Shown in pieces: positions 2,914 to 60,081 of a stretch of DNA of 64,000 nucleotides (positions within the stretch are counted from its first letter, which is position 1; each line of letters opens with the position of its first letter). The position numbers were made by a program, and so were the translations under genes. Source of the DNA: Eukaryota sp. GEM-RC1. Lineage: Eukaryota. Under the pieces are notes generated by a model that made no database searches, was not told where the DNA came from, and worked only from the letters and a program-made list of their open reading frames with translations. The DNA lies in assembly GCA_040285855.1 (NCBI GenBank), contig JAUFOQ010000001.1, positions 2,232,001-2,296,000 on the forward strand, written 5' to 3'.

Positions 2914-3042
2914 TGTTGTAGTTGTAGATTTGTGTAATTTCATATTAGGTTTTTATCTTCCCCCTTACATCTTTAGAGGTTCTTCTCCTTATAAAGGTTC
3001 TCCTCTTTAAGTATGTACCATTTTAGTGCACAAAGACCAACA
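2914..3042 (+). repeat. Putative 5' LTR of element A (129 bp)
   Basis: 5-bp terminal inverted repeat TGTTG/CAACA; TATAAA at 2990; junction palindrome CAGTAATTACTG as in elements B-D; no second LTR to confirm the boundaries. Confidence 0.7.
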
Positions 3043-4708
3043 GTAATTACTGTGGGCAATCCCCAACAAACCAACTCACTTTCAGCTCCTCTCCTGAACG
3101 GAACATCCCGTCTGGAGTCTTGTAAGTTCTTGGAGGACCTCCAAGCTTACGCCGCTGCTCTCCAGGCTTCCGAAGCATTGTCCCGCCCTGCTGCCGCTGG
3201 AAGCCGAAGAAGAGTTCGAGTCCGCCACCGAATCCGAAGGTGAAGACAATGAAGCCGTATCAGCCAGAGGTCCCGCCCCTCCCTCCAGAATTGTTCGCTC
3301 ACCTATGCTACAGTTCTGTCCCGACCCATCCGAAGTCTCTGTCCCGCCAGAGATGAACTCCCTTATCCCTGTTATCCGACGCTTTATTAGCCCTCGACTT
3401 TTATCCGCTATCCCTCTCCTCTGTCCCGAAGCTGAGGAAGACAACGAACAGCTTCTCGCGTGGATCTACTCCAACTCGCTCATTCATGATGAAGCTCTCG
3501 CCGACCGTCTACTTTCGAAGATCAGCATGAACCCCTCTATAAAAGAGTCCTCCATGCGCTTAGCAGACTACGTTCTAAGGTTTCAAGACCTTAAGAAACA
3601 GATTTCCCACTTGATTTTTAAAGAAGATCACTTCCTGTCCTCCTTTATCAAAGGCATCACTCCTTCTTCCGTCTCTTCTCGTATCTTCTCTTCATTCAAA
3701 AACGGGAGAGTTTCTTCTCTCGACGAAATCTTATCTCTCACCCGCCAACTCTTTGCAGCAATGCAACTCTCCTATTCTCTTGAAGAACCCCGTCCTCAAC
3801 AACCAGCTCCCAGTCGAACAACTAACCGACAACCCAGAACTCAACCTCGCTCTTCTAGACCCTCTCATTCTTCTTCTCACCTCACTTGCGCTTACTGCAA
3901 GGAGCCGGGACATGTCAAAGCCGACTGTCCAGATCCCAGCTGCCGAGCGAGTCGATTTCACCGCCCCTTATCCACTCCTCAATACCCTGCCCAACAAAAT
4001 CGAAGCCCTAGACCCCCTGCTCGAGAAAATCCCCCACGAAGCGTTCCAAGAGACCAGCCACGAAGTCAGCCTGTCCATCGCAGAAATCAAAGAGATCCTA
4101 CCATTAATCGCCGACCTAATACCCGTTCTTCCAACCAACGCCAAGTCAACGCAGTGGATACCACTTTACCTGCTCCAGAATTTGTGGATCACATTCCCCT
4201 TTGTCTACCTGTAGACCTTGGGATTGATGATTCACAGAGCAACTCTGTTAATGCTATTTCTACTCACCTAACTTCAGACCCTTGTAAACTTTCCCACAAG
4301 AATGACTTTTTAAAAATTAATCTTACTATCAATGGAGTACCTACTATGGGCACTATTGATACTGCCGCTAAGACTTCTTGCATTACCCAAGACATTGCCT
4401 CAAATGCTAACATGGAAATTTCTGAAAAACAAATTCCAATCTTCCTAGCTAACCAGTCTAGAATTTACTCCCCCGGTCTTGCCTGTGGCTACCTTACTTT
4501 TCTTTTCGAAGGCCCAGCCAAGAAAGTTCACCTGAAGTCCACCTTGCCTATCTTACCAGGTCAAAACCAGCTCTTAATCGGTTGTGATATCCTGACCAAA
4601 CTTGGTCTTATGGATGCCAACGGTGTGTATATCAAACTGGACGAAGAACACCGAAGATTTATCTCTGCTGAAACTGCTTTTGACCAGTTTATGACTACTC
4701 CCCCCTGA
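3013..4708 (+). CDS. gag: Gag-protease of element A (one +1 frameshift near 3200)
   Basis: CAYCKEPGHVKADC zinc knuckle; aspartic protease motif IDTAA; ORFs 3013-3243 and 3305-4708 join if one G is removed at 3199-3200. Confidence 0.85.
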
Positions 4709-4709
4709 A

Positions 4710-5846
4710 GTGTTTGCTACCAATCCTAGTTCCCCAATTAACTCATTTAAACAACAACTTGAACAGAAGAAAACCAGAATAGAACTTCCCCCCGTCGAAA
4801 AAGAAGCCTTAATTAACCTTCTTGCTGAATTCAGTGACGTGTTCAGTGATCTGCCACATCCAGATGGCATCGACTGTGAGCCTATGAGAATTCCCTTCGC
4901 CGATGAATCCCGAATAGTAAGCCGTCCGCCTAGGAACCTTAGCCCAGAGAAGCTAGAAATTGCCAACAAAGAATTCGATGACCTCCTTAAGAAGAACTTT
5001 GCCGTTCCGAATGAAACTAAGTGGTCCTCGCCTATCTGTTTGGTGACCTACGCTGACAAGGCCCCTAGATTAACCGGTGATTTTAGTGGCAAGAATGGGA
5101 TCAACGACCTCTCACGCACTCTGGAAGCCAATTTACCAAAAATCGCTGACATTCTGCCCGTTCTGTCTAAGGCAAAATATATTGCTACTCTCGACTTACC
5201 TAAAGCCTTCTGGCAAGTCAAACTTCACCCAGATGACGTGAAAAAAGCTTCACTATCCATACCTGGACGTTCAATTTCTTTTACTCGAGCTGCTTTTGGA
5301 CTGAAAAATGTCCCAGCTTTCTTTCAAAACTTGATGGTCTCATTCTTCGCCGATGAAGACATTTTTATTTACATCGATGACATAATCGTATGTTCGGAAG
5401 ACATTTCAGATCTACTCGCTAAACTCAGGAAAATTCTATTGAAAGCTCGTGACAAACGAGTTAGATTTGGCCTTCGCAAATGTGATTTTATTACTTACAA
5501 GAGTAAAATCGAGATCCTAGGATGCATCTTCCAGAATTTTCAACGTTCGATTAGTCCAGATCGTATCAAAGCTATCTGCTCACTCCCGCGATCAAAGACC
5601 TTATCAGAAGTTCGAAGTTTTGTTGGATCAATTAACTTCATTAGAGACTGGATTCCCAACCTTGCTTCCGTACTAGAACCAATTTCAAATCTGCCAAGAA
5701 AAACTAACAAGATCATCTGGACCGCCGAAACCGAAACTTGCTTCAGAGAAATTTTGAAACTAATCTCCAGCAACATTCCTTTAAACTTGCCGGACGCCAA
5801 AGCTACTATTCTGATTTCCACCGACGCCTCCGAAGTAGGCCTTTCC
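4710..5846 (+). CDS. pol: Reverse transcriptase and start of RNase H, element A
   Basis: LDLPKAFWQ, FGLKNVPAFFQ, YIDDII, ISTDAS; clearly homologous to element B RT. Confidence 0.9.
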
Positions 5847-7722
5847 GGAAGGGTCAAGGACTCATATACCCCCATGATCACCCAAGTGGTACTGACCTAC
5901 CCCCAGTCACCAAAATGGTATTGACCTACCCCTGTTCTCTTTCCTTCACTCTAATAATGAACTTACATAGCCTTAAACCACCTATAACCAGTATTTTATA
6001 AAGATCTACAATAAACACTGTTCTTCATCGCTCTCTTCCTCTGAAGAAGAACCACTATCTCCACTCCACTCAGTGTCTTCACTATCTACATCACATTCTT
6101 CTATTTCGACTCGAACAACGTTGAAATCGTCCAAATCTGTTTGTCCCATATTCTGACTCAACTTGACTCTTTTCTTTTCTGGCTTTCACCTGGTTTGTAA
6201 CGGCGGATTCGCGGTCTACCTCTCCCTGTTTTGACTTCTGGTGGAAGAATCGTAACACTTGCCAGAGTAATTGAAAGGTCTATCGGAAGTATTCCTTCTC
6301 CATACGTACGTTTGTAGTTTTCGCTGTAGTAGTAGCTATCAACTCCTGATGCGATGTTGCGTTTCAACTTCAAAAGAGCGGCAATTCCGTGACTACATGG
6401 ATAACCTGTCAGTTGCCACTTTTGACACAAACATGATCAATTATTGACATCAACTACAAATGACCGTACATCGTTGGTGACCTTAACAAAGGTATCTTCA
6501 CTTCTCTCAACAACTGTACATTCATATTGCCATGCTTCACTCAACAAGGACTTCACCTTCTGGAAAACCTTATCACTTACAGTTCCTTTCATATCAGATG
6601 CTTCTTTGAATCTTTTCTCAAACCATAGAGACAGTTTTTCTGCGATTGCGTTTACCATTCGGACAATGGGCATTCCTCGAACATTTAACAACCATGCATT
6701 CAAGCTTTCGATTAAATTAGAGGTCAGATGGCCGTAGCGTAAACCAGGAAAGTGGACTGAGGTCCAGTGTTCTAATCCTGCTGAAACCAACTTCTCGTAG
6801 GCTTTAGACGACTCAGATCTTATCTCAGTCAAAATATTATTGAGATCATCTTCGCTTTCAGCTTTGGCTGCTTTCCATATGAGGGAACTGAAACGCACGC
6901 CAACATTTTTCGCTAAGTGACGCAAACAGTAAGAATGAGCGGCCTCGGGATATACTCGCCTGACTGCTTCTAAGAGTCCTTTCTCCCTGTCGCTAACAAA
7001 AGTAACGACATTGTTTCCAAAACAGCTTTGAAACTGTTCAAAGAACCAGACCCAATTATCTAGGTTTTCACCAGAGACTACAGCGAAGCCAAGAGGAAAC
7101 AGCTGTCCTTGTGCGTCAACAGTGCTCGACGTAAGTAGCACTTGCTTGTATTTATTATGCAAGTGAGTGCCATCTACTTGAACTAATGGACGGCAATAGT
7201 TGTAACCACAGATTGTCCCCCCAAAAGCAATAAAGAACCTTTGAAACTGTCCTTCATCCAAATCTAAAGCAGTAACTGTTCCTGGATTGTGACTTTTCAA
7301 CAACTCCAAGTAAGAGCTTAGTTGATTGAAGTTATCTTCAAAGCTCCCGAATAGTTGTTCTCTACATAATCTACGCATAGCTTTGATCATGTGTTTTTTT
7401 ACAGTAACTTTAACGTGTTGTTTCAAATCAACAGCGAGATCGCTGCATTTGGAAGAGGGGTTTTGTGAGATTTTTTCTTGAATATAGGAAAGAGAGGCCA
7501 AGTACTTAGAAGAAGGAGGTGGTGGAGTATATGTTGTCTCGTCTTCAAGCTGACAAATGTGATCTTTTAGAGCTGTCACTTTATACAGGGTTTCTGGTGG
7601 GGATTTCGCAGGTCGAGATGCACGACAAACATATTCACATTGCTTGTTTGTACAAACTGCTTTGATCTGTTTATGTTCAGACTTTTTAAAGATGTAGTAT
7701 CGGCAGCTTGATTGAACTAACC
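5847..7722 (-). mobile_element. MULE/MuDR DNA transposon, 5'-truncated; transposase ~7722-6158 with one in-frame TGA at 6437-6439
   Basis: VDGTHL, FVSDREKGL, CLRHL, TSNLIESLN (MULE DDE); SWIM finger CLCQKWQLTGYPCSH; GRPR motif; G-rich terminus at ~5847 with TGACCTACCCC subrepeats. Confidence 0.9.
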
Positions 7723-8055
7723 GTGAGTACTCTGAAGGCTTCCTGCAGTAGTACTTCTGGATTTTCGAGATGAAGGATTTTGAACAGCATAATGTAATCA
7801 ATCTGTGCTTCCTCCAGTCCTGTTTCATGTTCAAGAACATCTCTGATTTCAAGATGTAACTTGTTTATCCCATTTGTTCGAATTTCTTTGCTAGCAACAA
7901 CAGCCATTTCTTGTTCTATATCAAAAGCATATATTGTGCCGCTTATTCGCTGCGCCGCTGGGATAGTAAAGGTTCCGTATCCAAATCCAATCTCCATGAG
8001 GTCATGAACGTCAGAGTCAATCTCCATTTTTGTTAGTATCCCAGAAACATCAAAG
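7686..8055 (-). pseudogene. Class I SAM-dependent methyltransferase, 3' part (C-terminus truncated against the MULE)
   Basis: Motif I MEIGFGYGTFT, motif II IYAFDIE, and IDYIMLFKILHLENPEVLLQEAFRVL. Confidence 0.85.
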
Positions 8056-8146
8056 TAATACCTAAAGGTGCAAAGGGGAAGGTAAAGGGTGTTTATAAAT
8101 CAAATTATACGTACTAGTAACACTTCACTAACACCTGTGGCTAACA
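8056..8146 (-). repeat. 3' LTR of element B (91 bp, TG...TA)
   Basis: Identical to 14754-14844. Confidence 0.95.
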
Positions 8147-11100
8147 TTACCTCTTCTCTCTTCTTGAGCTCCTTGTCCTCTTAGCTACAGGTGTCTTAAC
8201 TACAGACGATGACTTTGGAATACTCATACTACTTGAGGTACGTTTAAGCTTAGTGGGTTTACTCTTAGCTACGTTTCTACTATTACAAAATAAATCTACA
8301 TTTTCTAATTTTACAAATTCACTGTACGCCTTGGTGTTCTTGATGTCCTTGGTGGGAACTGATGAAGTATCACCACCAAACCAAAGAACAGTACAATGTT
8401 CACCATCGGGTGTATTGAACCTATCTAGGATCTTAACCACGATGTGTTCTTCAGAATCCCCAGAAGCAATTGCTCTGTGGAGATCATGATCAGCAGGTAG
8501 ATCTGATTGAAAGATCTTACATTGATGAATGCTAGTTTTACTAACATATCCAGTGATCAGATTCTTTAAGGAAACTGACGATTTCGAATCAATTGAGACA
8601 ACTAAATAAGGTCCAGTGTAATTACCATGAAGCTTACTAGTTTTGGATGCTTTTAAAACAAGGTCTCCAACATTGAATGATTGACTGGGGCCAGACTTCT
8701 TCTTTGGCTTGAGTCTCGATTGACGAACCTCTGCCTCTTCTCTCTTTTTAGTAAGACGATCCAGTTTCATTTTAATGTCGTTAATAACCGGAACATTCTT
8801 TGTGGATTTCTCGACAGCAGCTAGTAAATTACTAGGATCTGCACCAGGACTTATGTCACTACCAAACATCAATTCATAAGGTGAGTGCCCAGTCACAGAA
8901 CTATTCGTTGCGTTGATTTGCAATTGTACAGTTGGAATGTACGTTGACCAATTGTCATAATCATTGAAGTCCACAAGAAGACGACGTAGGCTTTGCAGAA
9001 CGTCTCTGTGACGTCGTTCCACCAGTCCATTACTCTGGGAGAAATGAGGAATCGAACGACTTACTTCAATCGCCAGTAGGTTACATATTGCCTCGAAAAT
9101 AGCATTGGCAAACTCGGTACCATTATCACTATGGATACAAAACGGTATTCCAAAGATAGCAATCACATCCCACACAAGACGAAATGCTACTTCTCTACTG
9201 TTAAGTTCTTCGAGGGGGCTCAAAATGGTGTATCTGGTGAAAGAATCTACAAACACCAATAGGAATTGGTTTCCATTTTGATCTTTTGGAAGTGGACCAA
9301 TTGTGTCGACATTAAGTCTAGCAAAAGGTCTATCAGCCCATAGAGAACCCGTCGGTTCAATTATCTTTTTAGGGACAGGTGCCGTTTTCTGACACGCAGG
9401 GCATTGCTTAACATGTTTTACCATGTCAGCTTTCATACTTGGCCAAAAGTAACCACTATTGAACAATATTTCCAAACTTCGTTTCTTGTTTGGATGTCCT
9501 GACTGGACTAATCCATGTAGCATGTAAAGAACTTTCGTTCTCAAACTAGATGGAATCAAAATCTTGTTCTTGGAGTTGATGTATACATTGCTCATAGTAC
9601 ACAGTGTTGAATCCTGAAACAGTTGATCTCCTTCATTGATGGCTTTATGTTGTTCAGCTCGAATGGTTGATAACCAAGAATCAAATAAAGGCAATTTATT
9701 GTATGTTGAGAGGTCTTGTAGACTCTTGATAGCTAGTATGTTGGTGTTACAAGGAAGCATCTCAACGTAATCAGCTTCATCATAGATTAACCCTTCGTGA
9801 GAAAGAATTATATCATTTCTGATGGTATGATTTGAGATCAACAGAGATTTGATTGTTTCAACTGGGCGACGGTCAATGACACGTGATAACATGTCAGCCC
9901 ATTGATTGTTTGTACCAGCTACATGCTCTATCTCAAAATCAAACTCCGAGAAAATTGGAATCCATCGTTTGACAATACGATTCTTCTCTGGAGCTGAAAT
10001 CAGATAAGCAAGGTTCCTATGATCTGTAAAGATCGTCAAATGCCTACTTAATAGGAAACCTTCTAAACTAGATTCGGTCAGAATCAAGAGAATGGCATAC
10101 AGCTCTTTCTGGATAGCTGCCCAATTCTGTTGACTATCATTGAGTAAACGGCTATAAAACGATACAGGTCTAACTCTACGTTCTTCTAACGGAGTTCCTG
10201 GAGGAGCTGGAGGATTTTCTTCCTGCCAGATCACACCACCAACAGCAATGTCGGATGCATCAGTTGATATGATAATGTTCTTATCAGTATCAGGTAAGTC
10301 TAAAGCCATATGGTTTATTATTTCAGTTTTAATTTTGTCTAATAAAGCATCATGGTCTTTTGTCCAAGCAATTCTCTTGGGTTTACCACGAGTCAGTTCA
10401 TTGATTGATGCAGTCAAGTTCGAGTAGTTTGGAATCCATTCACGAACATAATTTAAAGCACCAAGTAAACTTCTAACTTCAGGTAAAGTTGAAGGAGCAG
10501 GTAACTCAATCAACGCCGAAACTCTTTTATCATCTATGCAACGGGTTTTATTACAAAAGTTGCTGCCCAGAATCTTATTAGGATGTCTAGAAGTGGTGAA
10601 CCTACACTTCTTCAATCCAATCCGTACTCTAAAACGTTCTGCTCGTTCCAGTACTAGATTTATTCTTGAAATAAACTCTTCAAAGGTATTGCCTACAACA
10701 ATTATATCATCAATATAAATGAAAACACCTTCGACATTGAAAATTTCCATCATGATGTTTTGAAAGATTGCTGGTACGTTTTTCAATCCAAAACATGCTC
10801 GTTTAAAGCTAATTGACATTCCAGGTATAGACACACTGGTCTTCTCGACATCTTCTTCAGCTACATTTAGCTGCCAGAATGCTTTAGGAAGGTCAAGTGT
10901 TCCAATGAAATTAGCTTTCGAAAGGAACTCTAGAACATCACAGATCCGTGGTAAATTTGGTTTCACCGGTCTGGTATTAGCATTAATCCCATCAGGTCCA
11001 CTGAAATCTCCAGTTAAACGAGGCTTACGGTGATCATTATATACCACCAAGACTATGGGACTACTGAACTTACCAGTTGATGGTACGGTCCATCCTTGTC

Positions 11101-14100
11101 GTATAAGTTCATTAAAAATTTCTTCGGCTATTCGCTGTTTTTCAGGGTTAAGCCTTCTAGGAGGGCGTAATACAGTGACAGATTCATCATAAAATGGAAT
11201 TGTCATGGGTGGACAATCAATACCATCAGGATGTATGTGTTCTGAAAAGACTTGTTTGTATTTACTGAGTAGGCTCAGAAGCTCCGTTCTTCTTGTAGGA
11301 TCATCCAATTCTATCGTGCAACCAGAGTTGTCAATGGTTTCTTCAAACAGATTTATATCTAATTGAGTGTTACCGTACTGATCAATAGGAAAATGTGTTG
11401 AATGTTGATTTATTGAACATTTTGATTGAACTCTATTAATCGAAATTGATGGAGACCTCATCCTCTCATCAAATTCACTCTCTGCATTGAGAATAGTGCG
11501 ATGTTCTTTATCTAATCTAATGACTAGACCATCATCCGAAAGCAACCCCAGTTCTTCTTGCAAATCTCTACCAATGAGGAGAATTTTCGTTCCAGGAACT
11601 ACAGGTAGAGTATGCTTAACATGAATCTGGTTGGCCAAGCTGCCAACGTTGAACGTCAGAACACCAATTGCACTACCTAAGGAAGTAGCACGAATATTAT
11701 TCGCTGAGATGTATTCAATACAACTATCAGTTGTTGTCATCTCACAGTAGCGTATCAAATCTTGAGAAATTACTGAACATGATGCTGCTGAGTCAAATTC
11801 TCCTACTACTGGTACATTGTTGATTAACAATCGAATACATAAAGGACCGTTACCTTTAGTTTCGAACCCTAGGTTCTGGTTGAGACTACGAATTGTTTCA
11901 ACTGATGAAACACTTTTACCCATACTTGATTGTGTGATCAAAGTAGCCAAAGGGTTAGTGTATTTGAGTGGTGTAGTGTTTTTGTTTGAATTATGTTGTG
12001 CATTATCAATTTTGAAAATGTATCTAGGAGATTTATGATTTTTAAAACTACGAGAACGACTATCAGGACGACTATCACCAGACCTACGCTTATTGGACTT
12101 TGCATTATCCTGAGATTTACGACAATCAGGAGCATAATGGCCTTTTTGCCACATTTGAAACATTCTACATCAGTGGACTTACCATCAGAGGGTTTAGAGT
12201 ACCTCTGGTTGAAGGACTTTCTAGGAAAACGAGAATTTCCACGGGAATGGTCACGAGACCTTCTTTGAGAGTTTGAAAACGATGTCGTTGGCATCGAACG
12301 CTTGTAATCGATCCAAGCTGTCTTTACTTCACTCAAAAATTCAGGAAGCAAATGTTCATTGTTCTTTAAAGTGTGTTCCCACTTAACTTGGAGATCGTTT
12401 AGAGCAGCAATTTCTTTCTGAGGATTGAGTGTACATAACACTATGTCGGCTGAGATGCTAGCTGGGAGAAAAGTTCTACCAGTACCTAGGGAAATGGCTG
12501 TCGAACATTTTAAAATGTTGATAACAAGCTTTAGGTACCGATTCATTACAGTGGATGGATCATTAGATTGACTAAGTCTAAGATTCTTCAGATCACCCAT
12601 AGCTTGAGTAGTAGAAGTGTATTGGCTCAGGAGAACCTCAGTCTTTTTCAGTTATGTTTGAATCTGGACCTGGAACATTTAGAAGCTTCCAGTCACTCAG
12701 CAATTGACGATCAATGAATTCGGAAACACCAGTAGGATCAATCTCTAACAAAGTGAGTCTTACGAGATCAAATTTATTGATTGGAGCGATACCTAAACGA
12801 GTGTCAAAGTCTTTACGATTTGATTGTTTCCGGACATGAATTGCCCAATAACTAAATTCATGGATGAACTTAATTATGTCCTCGCGACTCTCGGATTTGA
12901 GGCAGCTGGGTCTTGATTTCTTTGAAATGGACTTTTTCTTTGTTCGATCTTTTCTTTGAGGGACACCAGACAAAATGATGGGAGTATCAGCCAAAACGTT
13001 CGGTTCTTCGTCTTCAGATGAGCTATCTTCAGACATAGAGTCAGTGACATCAGAAAGTTCTGCCAAAGGTGATTTTGATTGAGAAGTCAGATCACTTATC
13101 TCGATCGAATTTGATCGTTTAGGAGTTTTTCTACTTCTGGTCATGTGAGCAACATGATTTTTTCTATTTTGAGCAAGCTGTTCTGAGGAGAGAGCCATGG
13201 ACATAGATTCATCACAACCTTTAGCAAAGCCTTCTGGCTTACGATAAACACTTTCATGTTCTTCTAAGCTGATGAATCTTTCTTCACCACCAAATTGAGC
13301 TTCAAAATTTTGGGTAGAGATACCATCTCTAAGACCGTGTGTAAATCTATCAACCTGCTCAGGTCTGTAAACTTCACCAGGGAAGAATCTTTGAACACTA
13401 TCTAAGCCATTTAAATCAGAAAGGTTCGGAGCAAATGTAGCTTTTTCACACATAGCTTGAGAAGCTAATGGGAGTACCAATTGGGAACCACCAATTCCAG
13501 AAAAAGGTTGAACAGGGACAGAGTCAACATCTTGTGGTGAAGTTGACAAACTATCCAGAACTCTTGTCGCCGCAGGTAAATGACTATACTGATGACCAGT
13601 AGGAGCCATTCGGTACTTACAGAAACGTTGTGATATAACTTGCGTTTATTGTTCAACGAATGTAAGTACCAGGCGGAGTATTCATATGAAACTGACTGAC
13701 CATCAGCACTGAATATCTGGACTAAAGGTTCAATGATGATACCATGTCTAGGATCCCAAGAGTAGGTGGAAGGAAACCTATAAGTATCACCAGCTCTACT
13801 ATCATATAAGTCACCCAAAAACTGTTTTATGGCTTGAGGAGACGTGCCAGGAGGAACATTTTTCAGCAAGTAATGTCTTCCAGCAGGCATTCTATGACGC
13901 AAAGTGGGATGCCAGGGAGCAAATTTGGCAAGATGCCACAAGTCGTAGTCAGAGAGTGAGACACTCTGATCGTACGGACTTACAAACGGGATGAGATCGT
14001 TGGGAACTGCATCTCTATGAGGTCTAGACACATAACCGGTTTGTTGTTCTACAGCTAGAGCTCTCTCAGTCATGGAAAGATTAGCTGTTTTTTGCTGTTG

Positions 14101-14738
14101 CTCCAGAAGCTGTCGTTTTGCTTCTTCTGCCCTGGTCTTATGCTGAGCTAGGACTGTTTGAAGTTGCCTAAGGCTCTCTTCAACCTCTCTAGACAGAGGA
14201 ACTGAAGGATCAACGTTATCTTTATTTAATAAACTACTAACTAACAAGGAAGAATCAGAAACATGATGAGAGGGCAATGATGTTGGCTGAACTACAGACG
14301 AAGTAGCATTACCCACAACATTGTCTCCCGGAGTACTAGTGGTATCTGAAAAGATAACTGGGACTCCGTATTTCTCCAGAACCTTCTTGATTCCAAGAGG
14401 ATCTTCCTGTTCTGGTCCAATGGATGACTCCAAAGGACCAGGGTTGCCGCCAGACTCCGAAGAGCCCAAGGGTCTTATACCAGTCGTTTCGCCGGCTTCC
14501 GAAGAAGCCAAGGAACTTCCATCAACGTTTGAAGATGGGCTCTCGTGTGAGGAGAGACTCTCGGGTGAGGAGAGTTCGGACACAAAGTCCTCTTCATCTA
14601 CTGAGGATTCAGTAGGCACTTCGATCGGGGTGGCAGAGCTCTTCGATACTCTGGTCTTTTGACAGACCTACTTGGCTGTCTGCGGTTAGTAACTCCTTTC
14701 TTAGGAGCAGCTGTAGTAAGATTCCTCTTTTTTACCAT
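8147..14738 (-). CDS. gag-pol: Gag-Pol polyprotein of element B, about 2200 aa if four single-base frameshifts (~14660, ~13630, ~12645, ~12145) are corrected
   Basis: ATG at 14738 (MVKKRN, like MVKRRQ in element D); CFKCGKK/GHYAPDC knuckle split by a frameshift; FDSAA protease; YIDD RT; TDAS RNase H; HHCC, SDNGTEF and GPY integrase motifs; C-terminal chromodomain-like EHIVVKILD...VLWFGG..SSVP. Confidence 0.9.
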
Positions 14739-14753
14739 GAGGATAATAATTAT

Positions 14754-14844
14754 TAATACCTAAAGGTGCAAAGGGGAAGGTAAAGGGTGTTTATAAATCA
14801 AATTATACGTACTAGTAACACTTCACTAACACCTGTGGCTAACA
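14754..14844 (-). repeat. 5' LTR of element B (91 bp, TG...TA)
   Basis: Identical to 8056-8146; contains TTTATAAA. Confidence 0.95.
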
Positions 14845-14898
14845 AAAGACGGAGGCCCAGACTTCTTGTTCAGGCATTCCGCTTTCTCTGACTTTCAT
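14845..14898 (-). pseudogene. Class I SAM methyltransferase, 5' part (MKVRESGMPEQEVWASVF), separated by LTR element B
   Basis: Removing element B plus one AAAG TSD gives in-frame MKVRESGMPEQEVWASVF-DVSGILTKMEIDSD. Confidence 0.85.
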
Positions 14899-26499: not shown

Positions 26500-26829
26500 A
26501 ATTTCTTTAAATCTCCCTCTCGCACACCTAACTTTTATTCTTCTCCCCCTCAGAATTCCCCTTCATCCGTCCGTTTCTGCAACTTTTGTAAGAAACCCGG
26601 ACACACTATCGACTTATGCCGTGACCCGGAATGCAAAAGAAGCAAACTTAGCCCCTCCAACAAATTCTCTAATAACCCCAAACCTAAAGATCAACCTAAG
26701 AATAAACCCTACAATCGAAGGAACCCAACGGTCAACAGAACCTACGGAACCAGACAAAATTCCGCTCCTCGACAAACTAATTGTATTTTTAACACAAAAG
26801 AGGCCTCTTTAATCCCTGAGGTTAAGTGA
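26500..26829 (+). pseudogene. Gag nucleocapsid fragment related to element A
   Basis: CNFCKKPGHTIDLCRDPECKRS...RRNPTVNR versus CAYCKEPGHVKADCPDPSCRAS...RDPTINR in element A. Confidence 0.8.
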
Positions 26830-31093: not shown

Positions 31094-34000
31094 TGATACC
31101 TTCAGTACAAAGGGAAAGGGAAAGATATTTATAAATGAATTATAATGACTACGTAACTATACTACTAGTAATACCTTTGGCTAACATTACCTCTTCTCTT
31201 CTTTCGAGCTCCTTGTTCTCTTAGCCACAGGTGTCTTAACTTTGGAGGGTGACTTAGGACTACTCTTACTACTTGAGGTACGTTTAAGCTCAGGCTTCTT
31301 GTTACTAGTCTTGATTCTACTATTACTATGAAATAAATCTACATTTTCTAAATTACAAATTCACTATACACCTTGGTGTGTTTGATGTCTTTGATGGGAA
31401 CTGATGAAGTATCACCACCCAACCAAAGGACAGTACAATGTTGAACATCGAATGTATCGAACCTGTCTAGGATCTTAATCGCGATGTGTTCTACAGAATC
31501 CCCAGAAGCAACTACTCTGTGGAGATCATGATCAGCAGGTAGATCTGATTGAAAGATCTTACATTGATGAATGCTAGTCTTACTAACATATCCAGTGATC
31601 AGATTCTTTAGTGACACAGAAGATTTCGAATCAACTGATACAACTAGAAAAGGTCCAAAGTAATTACCATGGAGCTTACTAGTTTTGGCGATCTTTAACA
31701 CAAAATCACCAATCTTAAATGATTGACTAGATTCAGATTTCTTCTTGGGCTTGATTGACGTCTGTCGAACCTCTGCCTCTTCTCTCATTTTCGTTAGTCG
31801 TTCTAGTTTCATTTTAATGTCGTCAATATACGGAACATTCTTTGTTGATTTCTCAACAGCATCTAGTAAAATACTAGGATCTGCACCAGGACTTAAGTCG
31901 CTACCAAACATCAGTTCGTAGGGAGTATGCCTAGCGTTGATTTGCAACTATACAGTTGGAATGTACGTTGACCAATTGTCTCAAACATTGAAGTCCACAA
32001 GGAGACGACGTAGGCTTTGCAGAACGTCTCTGTGACGTCATTCCACCAGCCCATTACTCTGGGAGAAATGAGGAATCGAACGACTTTCTTCAATCGCCAG
32101 TAGGTTACAAACTGCCTCGAAAATAGCATTGGCAAACTGAGTACCATTATCACTATGGATACACAACAGTATTCCGAAAATAACAATCACATCTCACACA
32201 AGACAATATGCTATTTCTTTACTATTGATATTTCTTCGAAGGGGCACAGAATGGTGTATCTGGTGAAAGAAACTACAAACACCAAGAGGTATTGGTTTCC
32301 ACTCTGATCTTTTGGAAGTGAACCAATTGTATCGACGATTAGTCTAGCAAAAGGTCTATCAGCCCATAGAGAATCCGTCGATTCAATAATCTTTTCAAGA
32401 ACAGGTGCCGTTTTCTGACACGGGGGCATTACTGAACATGTTTTATCATGTCAGCTTTCATACTTGACCAAAAGTAACCACTACAGTGTGTCCAAACTTT
32501 GTTTCTTGCTTGGATGTCCTGACTGGACTAATCCATGCAGCATGTAAAGAACCTTCTTTATCAAGCTAGATGGAATCAATCTCTTGTTCGTGGAGTTTAT
32601 GTGTACATTACTCTTTGTCCACAAGGTCGATCCAGTGAACAGTTGATCTCATTGTTCTATCGCTTTGCTTTGTTCCAACCTGATGGTTGATAGCCAAGAA
32701 TCAAATAAAGGGATTTATTGTCGTATGAGAGGTCACGAAGACACTTGATAGCCAGCACGTTGGTGTTACGTGGAAGCATCTCAAAAATAATTTGCGTCAT
32801 CAATGAGTAAGCCTTCATGAGAAAGGGTTAAATCATATTTGATGGAAAAATTTGAGATCATCAAAGATTTGATTGTTTCAACTGGGCGTCGGTCAATAAC
32901 ACGTGTTAACATGTCAGCCCATTGATTGTTTGTACCAGCTACAAGCATTATCTCAAAATCAAACTCAGATAAAATGGGAATCCATCGTTTCAATGCGATT
33001 CTTCTCTGGAGTAAAATATTAGATAGGCAAGGTTCCTATGATCATTCGAGATCGTAAAGTGCCTACTTAACAGGAAACCTTCTAAACTAGATTCGGTCAG
33101 AATCAAGAGAATGGTAAACAGCTCTTTCTGGATAGCTGCCCATTCTGTTGACTGTCATTGAGTAAACGGCTACAAAAAGATACATGTCTAACTCTACGTT
33201 CATCTAACGGAGTACCTGGAGGAGCTGGGGGATGTTATTCCAGCCAGATCACACCACCAACAGCAATGTTGGATGTATCTGTTGACATGATAGTGTTCTT
33301 ATCAGTATCAAGTAAGTTTAATGCCATGTGACTTTGGATCTCAGACTTCAATTGTGCGAGTAAAGCATCATGGTCTTTTGTTCAAAGAATCTTCTTTGAT
33401 TTTCCACGAGTGAGTTCATTGATTGTAGTAGTCAAATTTGAATAATTCGGAATCCATTCACGAACATGATTTAACGCATCAAGTAAACTTCTTACCTCTT
33501 GTAAAGATGAAGGAGCTGGAAGCTCGATCAAATCCGAAACTCTGTTCTCATAAATGCTACGGGTTTTGTTGCAAAAATGTCTGTCCAGAATCTTATTAAG
33601 ATGTTTAGAAGTGGTGAACCTACACTTCCGTAATCCAATCCGTACTCTAAAACGTTCTGCTCGTTTCAGTACAAGATTTATTCTTGAAATAAACACTTCG
33701 AAAGTATTGCCTACAACAAATATATCATCTATATAAATGAAAACATATTCGACATGGAATATTTCCATCACGATGTTTTGGATAATGGTTGGTACCGTCA
33801 TCAATCCAAAACATGCTCGTTTGAAGCTAATAGACATTCCAGGTATAGACACACTGGTCTTTTCGTCATCTTTTTCAGCTACATTTAGCTGCCAGAATGC
33901 TTTAGGAAGGTCGAGTGTTCCGATGCAATTTGCTTTGGAAAGGAACTCTAGAATATCACAGAACCGAAGTACGTTTGGTTTCACCGGTCTGGTATTAGCT

Positions 34001-37000
34001 TTAATCCCGTCTGGTACACCGAAGTCACCAGTTAAACGAGGCTTCCTTATGTGGTCTTTGTACACAACCAACATAATGGGATTACTGAACTTACCAGTCG
34101 ATGGTACGGTCCATCCTGTCGTATAAGTTCATTCAAAAAAAAATTCGGCTATACGCTGTTCTTCAGGGTTAAGCCTTTAAGGAGGACGAAATACAGTGAC
34201 ATTTTCATCGTAAAGGAAATGGTCATCGGTGGACAAATCGAAACCATATGAGTGAATCTGCTCGGACAACACTTGTTTGTATTTACTGAGTAGGCTCAGA
34301 AGCTCCTATGTCTGTTAGGATCATCCAATTCTATCGTCAACCAGAGTCAATGGTTTCTTACAACAAACTGATGTCAGTTTGAGTGTTACCGTACTAATCA
34401 ATATTAAATTTATTGTTGAGAAATTTGATTGAACACTATTGATTGATTGTAATGGTGATTTCATTCTACCATCAAAAACTCTCTACATTGAAAAAAGTGC
34501 GATGCTCTTTATCTAATCTAATGACTAAACCATCATACGTTAGTAACTCCAGTTCATCTTGCAAATCTCTGCCAATCAGAAGTTGTTTGGATCCAGGTAC
34601 AACTGAGAGAGAAGTGTTTTCTGTGAATCTGTTTGGCCAAGCTACCAACGTTGAACGTCAGAACACCTACTGCACTACCTAAGGATGTTGCACGAATATT
34701 ATTCGCAGAGATGTAGTCAATACAACTGTCAATCGTTGCCATCTCACAGTGACAAATCAAATCTTGGGATATGATTGAGCATGTAACTGCAGAATCAATC
34801 TCACCAATCACTGGCACATTGTTAAACAACAATCGAATACACAAGGAACCGTTATCCTTTGACTCGATCCCTAAGTTCTGGTTGAGACTCCGAATTGTTT
34901 CAACAGATGACGTACTTCTACCCTTGCTTGAATGTGTGTTCAAAGCAGCCAATGGGTTCATGTACTTTGCTGGTTTAGTGTAGTTGTGTTTACCTTTAAT
35001 ATTTGAAAAATAAAATTGGTGTATTGAAACGACAAAAATCACTACGACTATCACCAGACCTACGTTTTGTGGTCTTTTCTTTCTTTTTACGATTGAGCAC
35101 CATATTTCTAAGGTGGCAATCAGTTGCAGAATGTCCAAATTTGCCACGGTTAACACGTTTAAGAGTGGTCTTAGCGTCAAAAGGGAGTTCAGAGGTCACT
35201 TGAAACAAGGACCTTGATTTCTATGTGGAGCGTTTCCACGATTTCAGGAGAAGCTTCTCAATTGAAGACTTCAAAAGGATGGGCAAATGGAACTACATCA
35301 TTCAATTGCATGTAAGTGATCCAAATCCCTTCAACTTCGTTACAAAAACTGTTGGAGGAGGCTATCATCCGACTTCAGTTTCTGTTTCCCAATGTGACGA
35401 TTGGTTGAGTGTTGACCTGATTTGCCAGAGTTGAATCAATCGTTCATCTGTGGACAAAATTTCGAATGACTTCACTTGTCAAAGTGACTCAAGGTCTTCT
35501 CAAAACCAAAAACCCAGTATAGTTCAAAACTTGGTTTTCTTGTGAGATGATATCAACAAGAGTCAGTAGACACTGATCTCTCTAAATCAAACACACGCAT
35601 CTGAGGTTTCGTACAAACTCTCAGGTAATACAATCCAGTGAATCTTCTGTGTGAACTCTACATTTTCTCTTTTCGTCATGCAATGTTTTCATGAGACAAC
35701 TACGTTGGAAAATTCTAGGACTTGTACAAGATCATTCACTACACTCATGGAAGTGAGCAACAATAAACATTGACCAAACAATATCATTACATCAAGATAT
35801 TTGGTTTATTTTTAAAAAATCTATATGTCAACAAGACAACGGTTCGACTCCCATCGACATCCAAAATTTCACTCAATTGGGGAAATGGGGAACCTATGTA
35901 CTAAATTTGCACTGATATCGTCAGAGTGGCCTTACTGTTGGTCGAGAGCTTCATTTAAAGGAAGTTCGGTAGACAGAGGCTTTCTCAGTCTTGGACATTA
36001 GCGTTTCATCTCATCAACCGTTTGTTAATGAGGAACTACTGAAGACACAAATTTTGTCTAGAGTAGGGTTCTAATCTACATCTTGTATGAAGAGAACTCT
36101 TCTGGACTGCCTGAAATAGGTCTTATGTCATCTACGTTTCTGTTTTGAAGACAAAAGTCTACAAAGACGAAACGATTTCAATCTGAAACAACTATGTGGA
36201 CATGCCTATCTTTCGTATGGGGCTTATAGTCTTACCAGAACTCAAAGATAAAGTGAGTACAACTCCAACTAAATCGTTCATGGGGTTCACATAGTAGACA
36301 AACTCAACTCTTAATGCCGTCTAACGAAATGGAGGGACTTACATCTTCCTTGTGCAGGTGAAACATCAGATATAGACAGTTATTTATAACAAAACACTGA
36401 AAAGCTCCTGATATCTCCAGAATAAAGTGCAAGGGAAACATTATCTGTTTATAAGCCTGCTACAAGGGAATTGCTTGATGGTTCATTAACAAATGACACA
36501 GTTTCAAGACATAACATCAATCCAAACAACACAAATGTTGATCAATAATCTTGAGAATTCCTCAGAGTGTGACTGTGAGTGTATTCTTGAAGAATGATTG
36601 AGTTCTTCTATCAATGATAGGCATCCATGCTCAGATGGGATAGTTGTTGACTTGGATCTACATTGAAGTATCCTTTACGAATAAATCGATGATCTCATTA
36701 GTCACTTCAGTTGACCTCACCTAAGGAACTGGTACTCTGTTCAATACAGATTCTTTATTTGAAAACAACAACAGTACTACTGATACTATTGGTTAAAAAA
36801 AACAGGTTCAAGGTTACTTTCTGCTGACAAAGTGGTAGCGTAACACTATTGATAACCCCAAGGAGGTCTAAACTTGTTCAATAAAGACTCCATGTCTATT
36901 ACTGAGGAAGTTAGACCTCCTTGACTGCCGCCACCCGTATTGGATGGGGGTCTTACATCCTTGACTGCCGCCTTCCACAGAGGATGGGGGTCTTACGTCC

Positions 37001-37329
37001 TTGGAGAAGCCGCCTTCCACAGAGGATGGGGGTCTGTCTCCAGCATCATCTCCGCCTTCCAAATTGGATGAGGGAGATGAGCTTCCGCCCTCCTTTTGAA
37101 GGAGAGGGACTACGAATGCCTGAAACAGGACTTATATCGGTAGAAGTCGAATCTTATGAGCTGGACTCATAGAATCTGCGGTTAGACGAGTCTTCACTAG
37201 AAGGACTCATGGTTTCACCTTTTTACCATGGACAATAATTATTGATACCTTCAGCACAAAGGGAAAGGGAAAGATATTTATAAATGAATTATAATGACTA
37301 CGTAACTATACTAATACCTTTGGCTAACA
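31094..37329 (-). mobile_element. Full-length but decayed Ty3/gypsy LTR retrotransposon C, same family as B
   Basis: LTRs 31094-31186 (93 bp) and 37243-37329 (87 bp), TG...CA, differing by 1 substitution and a 6-bp indel; TSD ATCC; fragmented PR/RT/RH/IN ORFs highly similar to B. Confidence 0.95.
36921..37045. repeat. Three ~40-bp tandem repeats in the 5' ORF of element C (RPPSSVEGG units)
   Basis: TTGACTGCCGCC..GGATGGGGGTCTTAC.TCC repeated; related units at 48720-48840. Confidence 0.8.
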
Positions 37330-37581: not shown

Positions 37582-39239
37582 ATGGATTCATTTTTTGTAC
37601 TTATACATTGTAGAAATAAATTTGTTTGTACATTGTAATGGTCATGACATCGTTGGAAATTGATCCCCATCTATTAAATCATTTAATGTGTTCAAACATC
37701 AGCATAATCTCCATTTCAATGAAGAAACTTCCGGGATTCTCATAAATACTTCATTTCTCTTAAACTAACAGTTATTTACGAACTTGTCTGTTTGCATTAT
37801 AGTCACACTGAGAAAATTTATGGTCTAATGTTTTTGTAATGTGAAGTACAGTAGATTATGAGGACCAAATTGGCAGTGATTTTTAAATTTCACAGATTTA
37901 CAAAGTGTTATGTTTTAAATTCAAAATCTTTCAAAACTTGAACTTTGGGATCACTTGTGAATACGTTTGTCCCGATATTGTATGTCTTGTATACATCACA
38001 GGTGGCTGCTGAGTCACAGTGAAGATTTTGTTGGATCACTTTTTCCCAAAATAAACAGGACGGACAATTGTTGATCAATTTAATCCTCTAGTAAATATAC
38101 AAAAATTGTACTTTAAAGAAATTATTAGTCCATCAAAGAGTGTCGATATTTCAAAAAATTCGGGAAATGAAATTGAACTGCTGTGGATTTTGTTTCGGAT
38201 GCTTATCAAGAATTTTCACTCCTGATTCCCGATTTCTAGTCTTTCATTTTTGTCAAGCTGCTACGCCTTAAAAATATGGTCTTTTACTGAACTGCCTCAA
38301 GGGATGGACTTCGGCTTTTTGATGATGTAGTCGTAACCAACTTGCCGAAGTTCCGTTAGCACACAACTTCTGATACCCGAGTTCGTGTTTTTTATACTTA
38401 AGAAGAAGAATTTTTGTCCACAGTCCTTGTCAAGAATTGTTGCACCAAGATTGTAATGTAATGGACGAAGAGTAGACTGTATTGCTACATTAGAATTTTT
38501 TTCTCTGATTGATCATAAACCCTGTTTTTTCTACATTATACTACTGAAGTACTAGAGATATAGGCAATAAATAAATTTATTTATTGTCAAATTTGACAAT
38601 ATCAATATATGTATTGTGGTGTTGACAATATCATATATTAATTGTAAACCCACATGATTTCACAGGATCCTTACACTTCTTAATGTACAAATCACAGGAT
38701 GAAAATGTCCACGTCATACACGAGAGAAAGTAGCGACGCTACAAGACGATAGAACCCACGTCATTTATCTCTTACATAGTACCTAAGACCAACAATAATT
38801 ATTGAGGCCTCTGCACAGAGCTTCAATGTGTATGTATACCGGAGCACTTTACTCCTGGAAACAATCCTAACCAAAGTCCTAGTTCCGACCTGGACTCTAA
38901 ATAAAACCCTAGTTCCGACATAGGTACCACTAAGCATCACTGGATCTTTTCTGCAAATCAATGCCGGCCCTGGCACTTTGATAAAGATTATCACTGAATG
39001 TACGGAAGAGCAGGTCAGTTCGCTAATGCTAAAATATCCAAAGAAACCAACTGTCCAGCTAAGACCAGCTATGATGAATCGATCTAAACCCGCTGAAGTT
39101 GTTGAGGCAATGTCTTCTAACCCAGCAATAATGGCTGAGCTGGGCTCAATCAAGAAGTCCATCTTGCTGCTCAATGACCAGCTGAAGGTCATTCATCACC
39201 TTCAAATGAATACCGAAGAATAAATGGATCAGCTATTTG

Positions 39240-44590: not shown

Positions 44591-46448
44591 GATCGTCATT
44601 GATGATTTGAGGATTGGGTGATCAACAAGGAGCTTAAACTTAGAGAGAGAAGAGAACAGAAGGTCACCAACAGTTTCAGCTTCGCCAATGATATAGAGCT
44701 GAGCTTTGTCTCGGTGTGGAAGTGGAACTGTTAGTGTATGTAAGATGAATAGATGGAGAAAGGGAACGTCATTGCGGGGCAATTGTGAGCGGATCTAAGA
44801 GGTGTAAGATGTTGTTGTCAGAAAACACAGTCTAAGGCCATGACGATAACGATTCGATAAAGATGTTCATAGAATTGCAGATTTGTTCAGTATAATGGTG
44901 TTATGTTATGATAACATTACTGTACTACTTATGTAAAACCAGGAGCTACCGATGTCTACTCTCTTCTTGAGTTCTCTCTGTTGCTTATCATATATATCCG
45001 TCCTTTTGTTCATATTTCAGTCATCCTATGTGTCTTTTATAGCTATGCCTTTGTGTTGCAATATCATCAACAAGATGATTGATAAAGGGTTGCGGCTGAA
45101 CTCTAGCACAGAAAATTGTTTCTACATGGACGATCTGACAAACCATTCTGTTACTTCTTAGGTATACAATGCCGACGATCCGTATCTTCGACACTCTTCA
45201 TTCTACATTGGTTTTTCTTTCAGTTCCTCTGAAGTCACTTCCTCTCTGTTAACCTTGACATTCAGCTCGGGATCTGGATCTCTTGAAGATGTTGTAGCTA
45301 TATTCTATCATTGGTTTTGAAAAGATCAAATTAGAGTCAGACTGTCCACGGATCAAGAGCCGACGTCTAGTGACTTGATCTAGTGAACGAAGAAGTTCTT
45401 CTCCGACATCAACGTTTGCTCTCTAGTCATTCCTTCTGTCCACTTCCTGAGTCTTACTAGTTCTTGAATCCTCTACTCTCTTCTCTTATCATAGTTGCCT
45501 TGTTCATTTCATTTCTTCTGATTGACCCGTTGTGCTTTTTGATCTTTCCCTTTCCATACGGCTCATCAAATTGCATCCATTGCTTCTGGTCTGAGTTTTT
45601 CACACAAAATCGAAACACACAGAAGCGTTTAATATTCTTTTTGTAGTCTTTATTCGATAGCACATGAAGATCATTTACTAATAGGTAATGGGCAAATAAT
45701 GTGACGGAACGCAAGTATTTTTGTCGTCAAGACGCGTCACATCGTGAAGTACGTATCTGTTTTAATGTGTATTCTTATGCAACCATGATCGTGATTAAGA
45801 GATGAGTATCCATCTGTCATTTACTGTTATTCTTTCTATGCCATCGACAACTTTAAAACTGTTTATTTCTGAAACTAAATGTTATTCTTCAACCAAGAAC
45901 TAAGACATAGAACTGTTTGAACCGATAAACTACCAAGTCTGTTACGTTTCTTTAATTCAACTTGTAACATTTAAATAAAGATTCTTAGTTTATAAACATG
46001 TTGTACATTTACTGCTTCAAGTTCATGTTCTAAACTGTCAGAAATATTTTCAATATGTTTTCTGTCGTTTTGTGAAGGCAACTATACCATAATTAAATAA
46101 TTACCATTCAATAAAGTTCCTTTCAGTTGACATGACTTGTATATTGACACTTGCTTTTCTACAAAGATGGGGTGACTGCTGAAATCATAGAGAGACCAAA
46201 TTCATCAAAGCGTATCTTATTTCTGGTTGACAGGATTTGCTTCAAATTAATCTTGATGATTATCGTTGTATCAAAATGTAGCGATGGAGAGTGAGTTATA
46301 CAACGAGAATTCTTGAACTCTATGAACTCAATGTACTGTTCAGGAGATTCAAATTCATAATTGGTTTCTAGTTAGGTCCTTGGTTTTTAGACATGATGTT
46401 TTGGGAAGTGTAGTCTGGCTTAAACTAAAATTTAAAATCCCACACACA

Positions 46449-48100
46449 ATGGAATGTATTGTATGCCTTGAGAAGTTCTTTGCAAACACAAAGATTCCCT
46501 TCATAATCTGTGAAGACGCACATACAGTATGTTCTCAATGCTACTCTAAGTTGAATAAATGTCCGACGTGTCGCCAAAACGTACTCAACAACCCTAAAGT
46601 CAACTATGGCCTACTTGCTCTCCTTGGAAGTCATTGAACGAGGAGACTTATTCAACGAGATCGATAGTTCCGAATTTCAGTCATTGGATGTTGCTAATGA
46701 GGCTTCTATCATTCCCGGTCTCTGGAACGGGTTAGAAATCGACCTTCAGTGGTTCCCATATTCCGATAAGATCGTCAACCAGCTTAAGAAGCAACATCAG
46801 TTGTTTTCCAATCATCGCAATCCTGGTTTACTACACCTTTTTGGAATAACGTTTCGTGACGATTATGTTGGTACCGTATCTGAGCGTGTATCATCTGATC
46901 TTTCCCTACCAACTCTACTCTCTCATAAATCTTTGGGTCTAGCAAGAAACGCTTGTGAAATCGTCCAATTCTTCCACTCACAAGACATCAATCTAAAACA
47001 CTTGAACCCCTCTGTGTTTCGAATCTGTGATAGTCGTCTAAAGCTCTCATCTGCTGTCTTTGTGTCTTCCCACTTTCCTTCTACCAATGATTCTTTCCAA
47101 AAATACTGTGCACCTGAGCTCTCTAACGATGACACATCTGTTGCTGCCGATATTTACTCTCTCGGAGTCCTTCTCTATGAAATGCTTTCATCACGATCCT
47201 TCCCCTCCTCTGACATCACTCTTACTTTCCCCTCCACATTTCCAAATGATTTACAAATGCTTATACAATCTTGTATCGATCCTGCTCCTTCCAAGCGACC
47301 GTTAATCTCCAAAGTCATTAGCGTTATTAGTTCTGCTTACAATAATCACGTGACCAAGGATCCTGCCAGTTTCCCCTACCAAGTTGCTGATCTACAACGA
47401 CAACTTCACACATCTGAACGCGAATCTAAACTTCTCCAACGCAACAATTCCATACTCGAACAGAAAATCGAATCATTAGTCCAACGGAATTCTAATCTTT
47501 CTAACGAGCTTAAATCAACCTTTTCAAAGTTAGAGTCTGTTGAAAGTGAATTAAGTAACCTAAACAACTTAGTTAAAAATCCAGGAACACCTGTCCATCC
47601 TAGACTTAAATCTCTTGTCCAAGCGTCTTCTTTTGGTCCATGTTTGATGGCAATGGGACCAATAATTTCCATTGATTCGGAAGTTTCCTCTTTGGAGACA
47701 GCTGAGTGGTCGTGATTTTGAGCACACTGATGTTCCGTGTGGAATTCCTGATATACTTATGATTGTTCGAACTGAGAACAACACTTTATTTGGAGGCTAC
47801 TTTCCAAAAGGATTTGATCGAGCGGATTTGAATATTTCCATATCAGCAGTAACTTTCCTATTTCATCTAGCTCCCCTTCGGCTCAAGGTTTTCCCTGTTA
47901 AAGTTGCCGGAGTAACTGGTGGATTTTCAGTTGGAAGGTATATCTCACCTCCGTATGGAGATTTAATTCTTGCCAGTGGGGGATACGGTAAGGAGAATCT
48001 TGGGGTGGTGTATAGAGGAAGTCCTGGAGAATTGGTTCCTGAGATTGATTTTGTAATTGAAACTGTGGAAATTTACCAATGTAGACTCTCTATGAAGTAG
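46449..48100 (+). CDS. RING finger - pseudokinase - coiled coil - TLDc-like protein, copy 1 (frameshifts at ~46626 and ~47680)
   Basis: CIVC...CEDAHTVCSQC...CPTCR RING; YCAPE and DIYSLGVLLYEM kinase C-lobe without HRD/DFG; heptad region; LMIVRTENNTLFGGY...FLFHL...VEIY resembles TLDc. Confidence 0.8.
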
Positions 48101-48639
48101 AAGTTCAGGGTCTGGTTTTCTTGTAATTTGGGGTTGTTTTAAATCTGTCTTGAGTGTATCTCTATACTATTTCCAGTAAATCAGCAAAAGGTACTGTTAG
48201 GTTAAAACAAACTATTAGTGCTGACAATATGCGTCATCATCCGAACAACACCAATTGACTTTCATCAAAACCCAATCAATTGATGATCCACTGCTAGCAT
48301 GTCGTTTATAGGCAATAACTGCTGATCTGAAAATATGTTTATCACATAAATCTGCATTGTGGAAAAGACTTAAACTGTTGTTAGATGAAGACTCGCTAAA
48401 ACACCCAAAACACATCAAACCAGGCTTGTTAACTGATAAAAAACAACGTTTTTAATAATTCCAACGTATTCTATATTCTGGATCGACACTTAAGGCATAA
48501 CTTCGAACTCCAATTCTATCATATTTTATATTATTTTCTTATATATGTAGTTTCTTAACCAACAAGACTGAAAGAAGACAACAACAGCAATGGCCAATTA
48601 TGGCAGTGTGTGCTTTTCACGAGATTCTTACATAAGTTA

Positions 48640-49049
48640 GTTTCGGCTGAAAAAGTGGTAGAGTAATGTTGCTGGTAACCTCCAGGAGGTCTAAACTTGT
48701 TCAATAAGACTCGATGTCAAAGACTGAGGAAGTAGAGCCTCCTTGATTGCCGCCTTCCGTAAAGGATGGGGGTCTTATACCAGTCTTATCTCTGCCTTCC
48801 GAAGATGGGAGAGAAGGACTTCCGCCTTCCGTATTGGATGACGGATCAGGGCTTACACCGGATGACGAAGAAGAAAATGAGGAGGAGCTATCAGAAGCAT
48901 ATTCCGATGAGCTAACTTCCTCAACTTGAGGCCTAGAGTTAATGTCTTGTCGTCTTTTCACCATAAGACAATAATTATTGATACCTGTTGGTGAAAGAGG
49001 TAAGATAAAGGTGTTTATAAAGTGAAATTATCCTACTTGATACTATACA
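48640..49049 (-). mobile_element. 5' fragment of LTR retrotransposon D (LTR ~48979-49049, leader palindrome, start of ORF)
   Basis: LTR ends GGTATCA like C and contains TTTATAAAC; ORF MVKRRQ...TGIRPPSFTEGG is homologous to the B/C N-termini; outer LTR boundary approximate. Confidence 0.8.

Positions 49050-57957: not shown

Positions 57958-60081
<2,124 letters not shown>

Follow-up and report, generated by a model that had tools for sequence, protein, structure and literature searches.

How an LTR retrotransposon starts reverse transcription when the site next to its LTR is a palindrome and not a tRNA primer-binding site is the question raised by a group of elements in Eukaryota sp. GEM-RC1. 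The elements lie in a stretch of 64,000 nucleotides (contig JAUFOQ010000001.1, positions 2,232,001 to 2,296,000 of the forward strand, assembly GCA_040285855.1), the whole of which is referred to as the window. In all four Ty3/gypsy copies with a visible 5' end (A, B, C and D), a perfect 12-bp palindrome spans the border between the 5' LTR and the leader. It is composed of the last 2 nt of the LTR and the first 10 nt of the leader, and its axis lies 4 nt past the LTR in each copy. Leader positions are counted from +1 and LTR positions backwards from -1. Coordinates are given in Table 1.

Table 1 Features of elements A to D and of site E (positions within the window)
Feature	Positions	Strand	Basis or remark
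A putative 5' LTR, 129 nt	2914..3042	+	ends inferred
A palindrome, 14 bp, G...C variant at +1/+8	3040..3053	+	
A gag-protease and RT	3098..5924	+	cut off within RNase H
B target duplication CTTT	8052-8055 and 14845-14848		
B 3' LTR	8056..8146	-	identical to 5' LTR
B pol: protease, RT, RNase H, integrase; degenerate chromodomain-like tail	8147..12169	-	Ty3/gypsy order
B polypurine tract	8150..8165	-	3 nt before 3' LTR
B gag region	11938..14738	-	several frames relative to P0002/P0003
B predicted U5:leader/AUG stem, centred on palindrome axis	14722..14778	-	prediction
B gag ATG	14736..14738	-	15 nt past LTR
B palindrome, TA...TA variant	14744..14755	-	last 2 nt of 5' LTR and 10 nt of leader
B 5' LTR, 91 nt, TG...TA	14754..14844	-	self-comparison of window
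TTTATAAA in B 5' LTR	about 43 nt before LTR end	-	
C 3' LTR, 93 nt	31094..31186	-	self-comparison of window
C palindrome, CA...TG variant	37233..37244	-	
C 5' LTR, 87 nt	37243..37329	-	
E: A-like LTR end, then C/D-type palindrome (38793-38804)	38785..38804	+	
D: 5' LTR remnant, leader and gag start only	48636..49049	-	
D palindrome	48969..48980	-	

Elements and their palindromes

Element B is a young copy. Its pol frame runs without interruption up to a stop codon that adjoins the 3' LTR. The RT, RNase H and integrase domains were found at 416–537, 602–743 and 872–1042 of pol, respectively. The protease was matched in A and aligned onto B; the domains follow the order protease, RT, RNase H, integrase. 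The two LTRs, both 91 nt long, are 100% identical. Two database proteins of the same family (P0002 and P0003) likewise have their predicted start at the ATG of B. Both LTRs end with TA in place of the usual CA, and the leader has TA at the position of the TG found in C and D. With these LTR ends, B integrated and produced a clean 4-bp target duplication. RIP-like mutation was rejected as the source of the TA...TA variant, as CpA (0.13) was the lowest of the four contexts in a comparison of B with C. A MULE transposase (6437–7864, minus strand) adjoins the cut end of A and the 3' end of B.

The LTRs of C (87 and 93 nt) differ by one substitution and one 6-nt indel, have TG...CA termini and are flanked by the target duplication GGAT. 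The polypurine tract lies 3 nt before the 3' LTR, as in B. Direct LTRs, a 4-bp target-site duplication and a polypurine tract are thus all present in B and C (A and D are truncated), which fixes the LTR ends independently of the palindrome. The coding region between the LTRs of C is broken by many stop codons and frameshifts; the palindrome was nonetheless kept. The combination of near-identical LTRs with a broken coding region (31094–37329) could mean that C moved in trans as a non-autonomous copy, or could stem from assembly errors. Also within C, a worn stretch resembling an LTR end (36405–36455, minus strand) is followed by no palindrome. Of D, a relative of B and C, only a 5' fragment is present; its LTR end was inferred from 78–80% identity to both.

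For A, the LTR end was inferred from the termini TGTTG...CAACA and from a 25/32-nt match to site E, and no second LTR was found in the window. A weak match to the LTR start of A (53438–53495) looks like low-complexity sequence and was dropped. Site E carries a fifth palindrome, which was overlooked in an earlier reading made from the DNA letters only (hereafter the sequence-only reading); the G...C pair of A reads A...T in E. Neither an LTR partner nor a pol region of E was found in the window, and the frame downstream of it has no relative. We therefore list E without counting it among the elements. Roughly 190 nt upstream of E (38565–38601), an AT-rich stretch contains two perfect palindromes, 22 and 20 bp long, that overlap each other; the 22-bp palindrome shares its first and last six letters with the palindrome of C, D and E. 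A lone gag zinc-knuckle fragment (26521–26805, plus strand) is 87% identical to P0051.

The palindromes of A to D had been reported by the sequence-only reading, and all four 12-mers are indeed perfect palindromes where it had placed them; that of A extends to 14 bp, as suggested there. The short leaders were likewise confirmed, with 15 (B), 13 (C) and 14 (D) nt from LTR to ATG. The window has no excess of palindromes of at least 12 bp (23 compared to 19–20 expected, with a chance of 3.6e-4 per position), so it is the fixed position of the palindrome that needs explaining. The motif YARTAATTAYTR, which was defined post hoc from the sites, occurs five times in the window compared to 0.20 expected occurrences, a count reached in none of 100 shuffles. 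As a control, nine repeat-flanked distant gypsy loci from other hosts were inspected, and none of them has a junction palindrome of at least 10 bp. A TGG-type site is present in the distant gypsy loci L001 and L030.

Two compensatory pairs had also been claimed. Both double changes are real, and both variable pairs of the palindrome (2/2) change on both sides. The five sites give four distinct rows with 24 of 24 cells paired and two double changes, a score that is equalled in 37 of 500 shuffles of this comparison of only five sites, three of them closely related. Resting on two pairs, the covariation alone is weak and not significant.

Relatives and host

The RTs of A and B are about 45% identical (44–47%). 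The nearest database relatives of B stem from Eukaryota sp. GEM-RC1, with up to 100% identity over the RT-RNase H region, and further relatives are proteins of TZLM3-RCL and TZLM1-RC (44–70%). Other matches among those listed are at most 35% identical, except for the unnamed protein P0034 (46%). A midpoint-rooted FastTree tree, which comprised 108 of the 122 collected proteins, placed 47 host-lineage RTs in one clade with a support of 0.88 (1.0 with P0034). These RTs form a clade of their own, apart from the fish chromovirus-like matches. With the midpoint root, all but one of the 47 host-lineage RTs (46) fall under the node at which A and B join. As A and B stand astride this node, the palindrome spans a deep split in the clade, as judged from the window elements, for which alone the DNA was seen. 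We conclude that the palindrome is real and that it is conserved in a clade of Ty3/gypsy elements from a probable metamonad.

The tail of B has no Pfam Chromo match. Among 121 proteins, a profile of 12 tails matched the tails of P0076 (E 3e-6) and P0034 (E 8e-6), both of which carry PF00385, and the tail of B resembles a degenerate chromodomain.

Organisms of this kind are described as skoliomonads, free-living metamonads with genomes that are 28–55% repetitive (PMC11316075); the main text of that paper contains no occurrence of 'retrotranspos' or 'LTR'. The host of the present elements probably falls within the skoliomonads. Related loci were found neither among 59 candidates in viral contigs nor among 124 in prokaryote genomes. 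In metagenomes, 32 of 144 candidates were related loci, all with identities of 22–39% and none of them a close relative. The junction motif of B, C and D was absent from all 32; 23 of them were inspected for LTRs, and nine have a flanking repeat pair.

Several host genes were observed in the window. A polyubiquitin gene (58024–60081) consists of nine units of 228 nt. A kinase gene is duplicated (46105–48105 and 61562–63543, 94% identical), and its second copy has an in-frame N-terminal RING finger. In two host genes, a TTTAAA(A)TC element (about 57985–57995 and 61870–61885) precedes the ATG by 13–32 nt. It resembles TTTATAAA of the LTRs of B to D and is a candidate start-site element.

Possible routes to a primer

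The palindrome occupies the place at which a primer for the minus strand has to bind and is self-complementary; the simplest source of a primer is therefore another copy of the element RNA. We propose that these elements are Ty3/gypsy retrotransposons with very short LTRs in which the palindrome would serve as the primer-binding site, and that a packaged partner RNA would prime without tRNA after being cut. We put the probability of this reading at roughly 40%. The sequence-only reading had offered priming or dimerisation through a partner RNA alongside fold-back; the former is the option that fits best, whereas fold-back came out weak.

In B to D, the palindrome-capped hairpin between U5 and the leader/AUG region is predicted to rearrange into an extended duplex of two RNAs. 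By analogy with Tf1, a nuclease, most simply the RNase H of the element, might then cut one of the two RNAs near +8. The 5' fragment would stay held by the ten palindrome pairs together with the U5:leader pairs. Paired to positions +1 to +10 and the leader of the partner, it would have its 3'-OH facing the U5 of the partner and could be extended into it. Plus-strand synthesis normally copies the primer. Such copying would write the complement of LTR positions -1/-2 into leader positions +9/+10, and the copied primer would give an overlap of 10 nt for the second strand transfer. If a C at -2 changed to T, about half of the progeny would then carry the matching change at +10, as B does, so that primer copying would explain the paired TA...TA change of B in a single round of replication. 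More tentatively still, we suggest that this would be a third way to start reverse transcription beside tRNA and Tf1 priming, in which RNAs pair through a palindrome, one cut yields the primer and primer copying rewrites the palindrome.

The dimer of the 12-mer was predicted at -7.0 to -9.6 kcal/mol in B to E and at -14.2 kcal/mol in A. For the region from -27 to +35 in B to D, the dimer reached -34.6 to -36.8 kcal/mol compared to -22.6 to -24.8 kcal/mol for two monomers, and in A to D it lies about 12 kcal/mol below two monomers. Dimer formation is energetically favourable for every inverted repeat, and these energies are therefore no proof of function. Folding also predicts that in B to D the palindrome caps an imperfect inverted repeat, the U5:leader/AUG stem, whose arms are the pyrimidine-rich U5 (about -25 to -6) on one side and the leader with the first gag codons, including AUGGU, on the other. 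The pairing of the arms was compared to 1000 shuffles at three folding-window lengths, with the palindrome left out. For D, 9–13 shuffles were as good, for B 11–89, varying with window length, and for C 96–225, which is not significant. The outer stem is absent from A and E, where 521–847 of 1000 shuffles were as good. In the alignment of B to D, 41 of 45 stem cells are paired and four double changes occur, as in 17 of 500 shuffles, with 42–67% paired when slid; the stem itself and these counts come from the same three rows. The z-scores for folding of the whole region range from -2.1 to +0.2.

The strongest alternative, which we nevertheless regard as unlikely, is that a host RNA (a tRNA fragment or another small RNA) primes and that the palindrome was kept as a dimerisation or packaging signal, comparable to retroviral dimer-initiation palindromes and to PAL of Ty1. 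Palindromes have been proposed to dimerise the RNA of Ty1 (PMC4974528). The covariation pointed out by the sequence-only reading is no argument against a host primer. All differences among the five sites within +1 to +10 are A/G or C/T, hence one and the same host RNA, carrying U where the sites have A/G and G where they have C/U, could base-pair with each of the five; the fit breaks off at +12. Such a G-U-pairing RNA would, however, not explain the joint change of the palindrome halves. The absence of a TGG primer site noted earlier stands, as none of the five sites has a TGG within 3 nt of the LTR. The window contains no tRNA genes, and a search against Rfam gave no matches. The register on the anticodon loop of tRNA-Ile(AAU) would require a pyrimidine at tRNA position 37, which is normally a purine. 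Half-tRNA priming is documented, in the two papers cited for copia lineages only (PMC6317226, PMC10886601). A host primer would also leave unexplained why a dimer signal lies exactly on the primer site and why, in B, position -2 of the LTR changed in step with position +10 of the leader.

Priming as in Tf1 appears improbable. The 5' end of the transcript, starting from an RTAATT hexamer within the LTR, would pair with +3 to +8 and be cut off as the primer. This hexamer is found in the LTRs of A to D, 50–53 nt (B to D) or 109 nt (A) before their end, and has a G in A, as does the palindrome of A. The chromodomain-like tail is also in line with this route, and relatives in the Tf1/sushi group carry a chromodomain. 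However, the longest perfect match between leader (+1 to +14) and LTR is this hexamer in A to D (6 nt) and measures 4 nt in E, which agrees with the earlier claim that Tf1-type complementarity is missing. Between 35 and 103 of 300 shuffled LTRs of A to D match the leader over an equal length, and the hexamer is absent upstream of E. Its six pairs compare to 11 in Tf1 (PMC7175516), and the route needs no palindrome.

Priming in cis is a poor candidate as well. The RNA would fold back at the palindrome into a 4-bp stem with an AAUU loop, held by the outer stem, and would be cut on the 3' side and extended into its own U5. With the outer stem, the four cis pairs reach probabilities of 0.27–0.83 in B to D and of 0.83–0.95 in A. 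The isolated 12-mer, however, forms no stable hairpin in B to E (0.0 kcal/mol) and reaches only -1.1 kcal/mol in A, which speaks against the fold-back option put forward earlier. A cut at +8 would presumably leave two pairs to hold the primer end. Moreover, a hairpin does not need self-complementary loop letters, yet the four loop letters are self-complementary in all five sites.

We give similarly little credence to a role of the palindrome as DNA, be it as the site of a dimeric transcription factor, as an initiator for a gag mRNA with a short leader or as an end recognised by the integrase, with priming being a separate matter. Perfect palindromes are typical of protein-binding sites, and in B to D an ATG follows within 3–5 nt of the palindrome. 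However, A has no ATG at that place, and the polyubiquitin and RING-kinase genes (2/2) have the TTTAAA-type element and no such palindrome before their ATG. The missing primer site would be left unexplained. Least probable is an inherited AT-rich motif with symmetry but no function: 12-bp palindromes are common in the window (23), the copies are few and 37 of 500 shuffles score equally, yet the motif was kept across 44–47% RT identity without a broken pair in 24 cells and recurs in the same register in an unrelated superfamily (GalEa, PMC5445492).

If, as we prefer, a partner RNA primes, a single step would combine dimerisation with priming, and a class of elements would escape annotation tools that insist on a tRNA site. 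The candidate signals are packed into about 105 nt, and the natural variants of the palindrome are ready-made disrupting and compensating pairs, which makes the question testable.

Comparison with known systems

The sequence-only reading had left in doubt whether such a palindrome had been described. One with its axis at +4 is in fact known from another superfamily, the fungal GalEa elements (Ty1/copia), which have no primer site and carry the Conserved Hairpin Site with CHSeq1 and CHSeq2 (Donnart et al. 2017, PMC5445492). The GalEa 9-mer is palindromic together with the last A of the LTR, and its authors proposed that the palindrome replaces the primer site and stated that no known model fits (PMC5445492). 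The elements described here share with GalEa the replacement of the primer site by a palindrome at the LTR end and the position of its axis. The TAATTA core also occurs in one of the two common GalEa forms, and its authors predicted, for five of eight GalEa elements, a larger hairpin that spans the LTR junction. In contrast, the domain order is that of gypsy here and of copia there, and the palindromes measure 12–14 bp compared to 10 bp in GalEa. The inverse-complementary 9-mer CHSeq2, which lies downstream in GalEa, is absent here (best match with at least three mismatches at all five sites); it is also missing in some GalEa families (PMC5445492). The leader of 13–15 nt and the predicted pairing of U5 with the AUG region are further differences. 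Judged by its sequence, the site resembles that of GalEa in position and symmetry, lies outside the GalEa clade and is not of the Tf1 type. For priming by a partner RNA, GalEa as described in that paper is the one partial precedent.

Within Ty3/gypsy, the elements resemble Tf1, Tf2, Tj1 and Tcn1, which use no tRNA and have a primer site abutting the LTR (PMC7175516, PMC4600332, PMC6317226). Tf1 sets the precedent for an RNase H that cuts the element RNA into a primer; unlike here, its 11-nt transcript 5' end pairs with a non-palindromic site (PMC7175516), and no such match was found in our elements. Skipper, a group of dictyostelid chromoviruses with a chromodomain, likewise comprises protist Ty3/gypsy elements with neither TGG nor a Tf1-type match, for which novel priming was proposed; it has a polypyrimidine stretch where a palindrome is found here (PMC5006619). 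Novel priming was also proposed for Tcn2 to Tcn5 of Cryptococcus (PMC7175516). The sources cited treat it as an open question how GalEa, Skipper and Tcn2 to Tcn5, which have neither a tRNA site nor Tf1-type complementarity, start reverse transcription. In the literature searched, mostly outside subscription journals, gypsy elements with a palindrome as primer site were not found to be reported; the term 'Conserved Hairpin Site' was found, besides GalEa, in work on bivalve TRIMs.

A feature newly noted here is the predicted U5:leader/AUG stem under the palindrome in B to D, which is clear in D and B and not in C. As in retroviral dimer-initiation sites, a palindrome would join two genomic RNAs and U5 would pair with the region of the gag start, a U5:AUG pairing also known from HIV-1. 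Joining of two genomic RNAs was likewise proposed for PAL of Ty1 (PMC4974528). Unlike here, where the palindrome replaces a tRNA primer site, the palindromes of Ty1 and of retroviruses accompany one. If the proposed reading is true, the same geometry in fungal copia elements would represent a solution shared by both LTR superfamilies.
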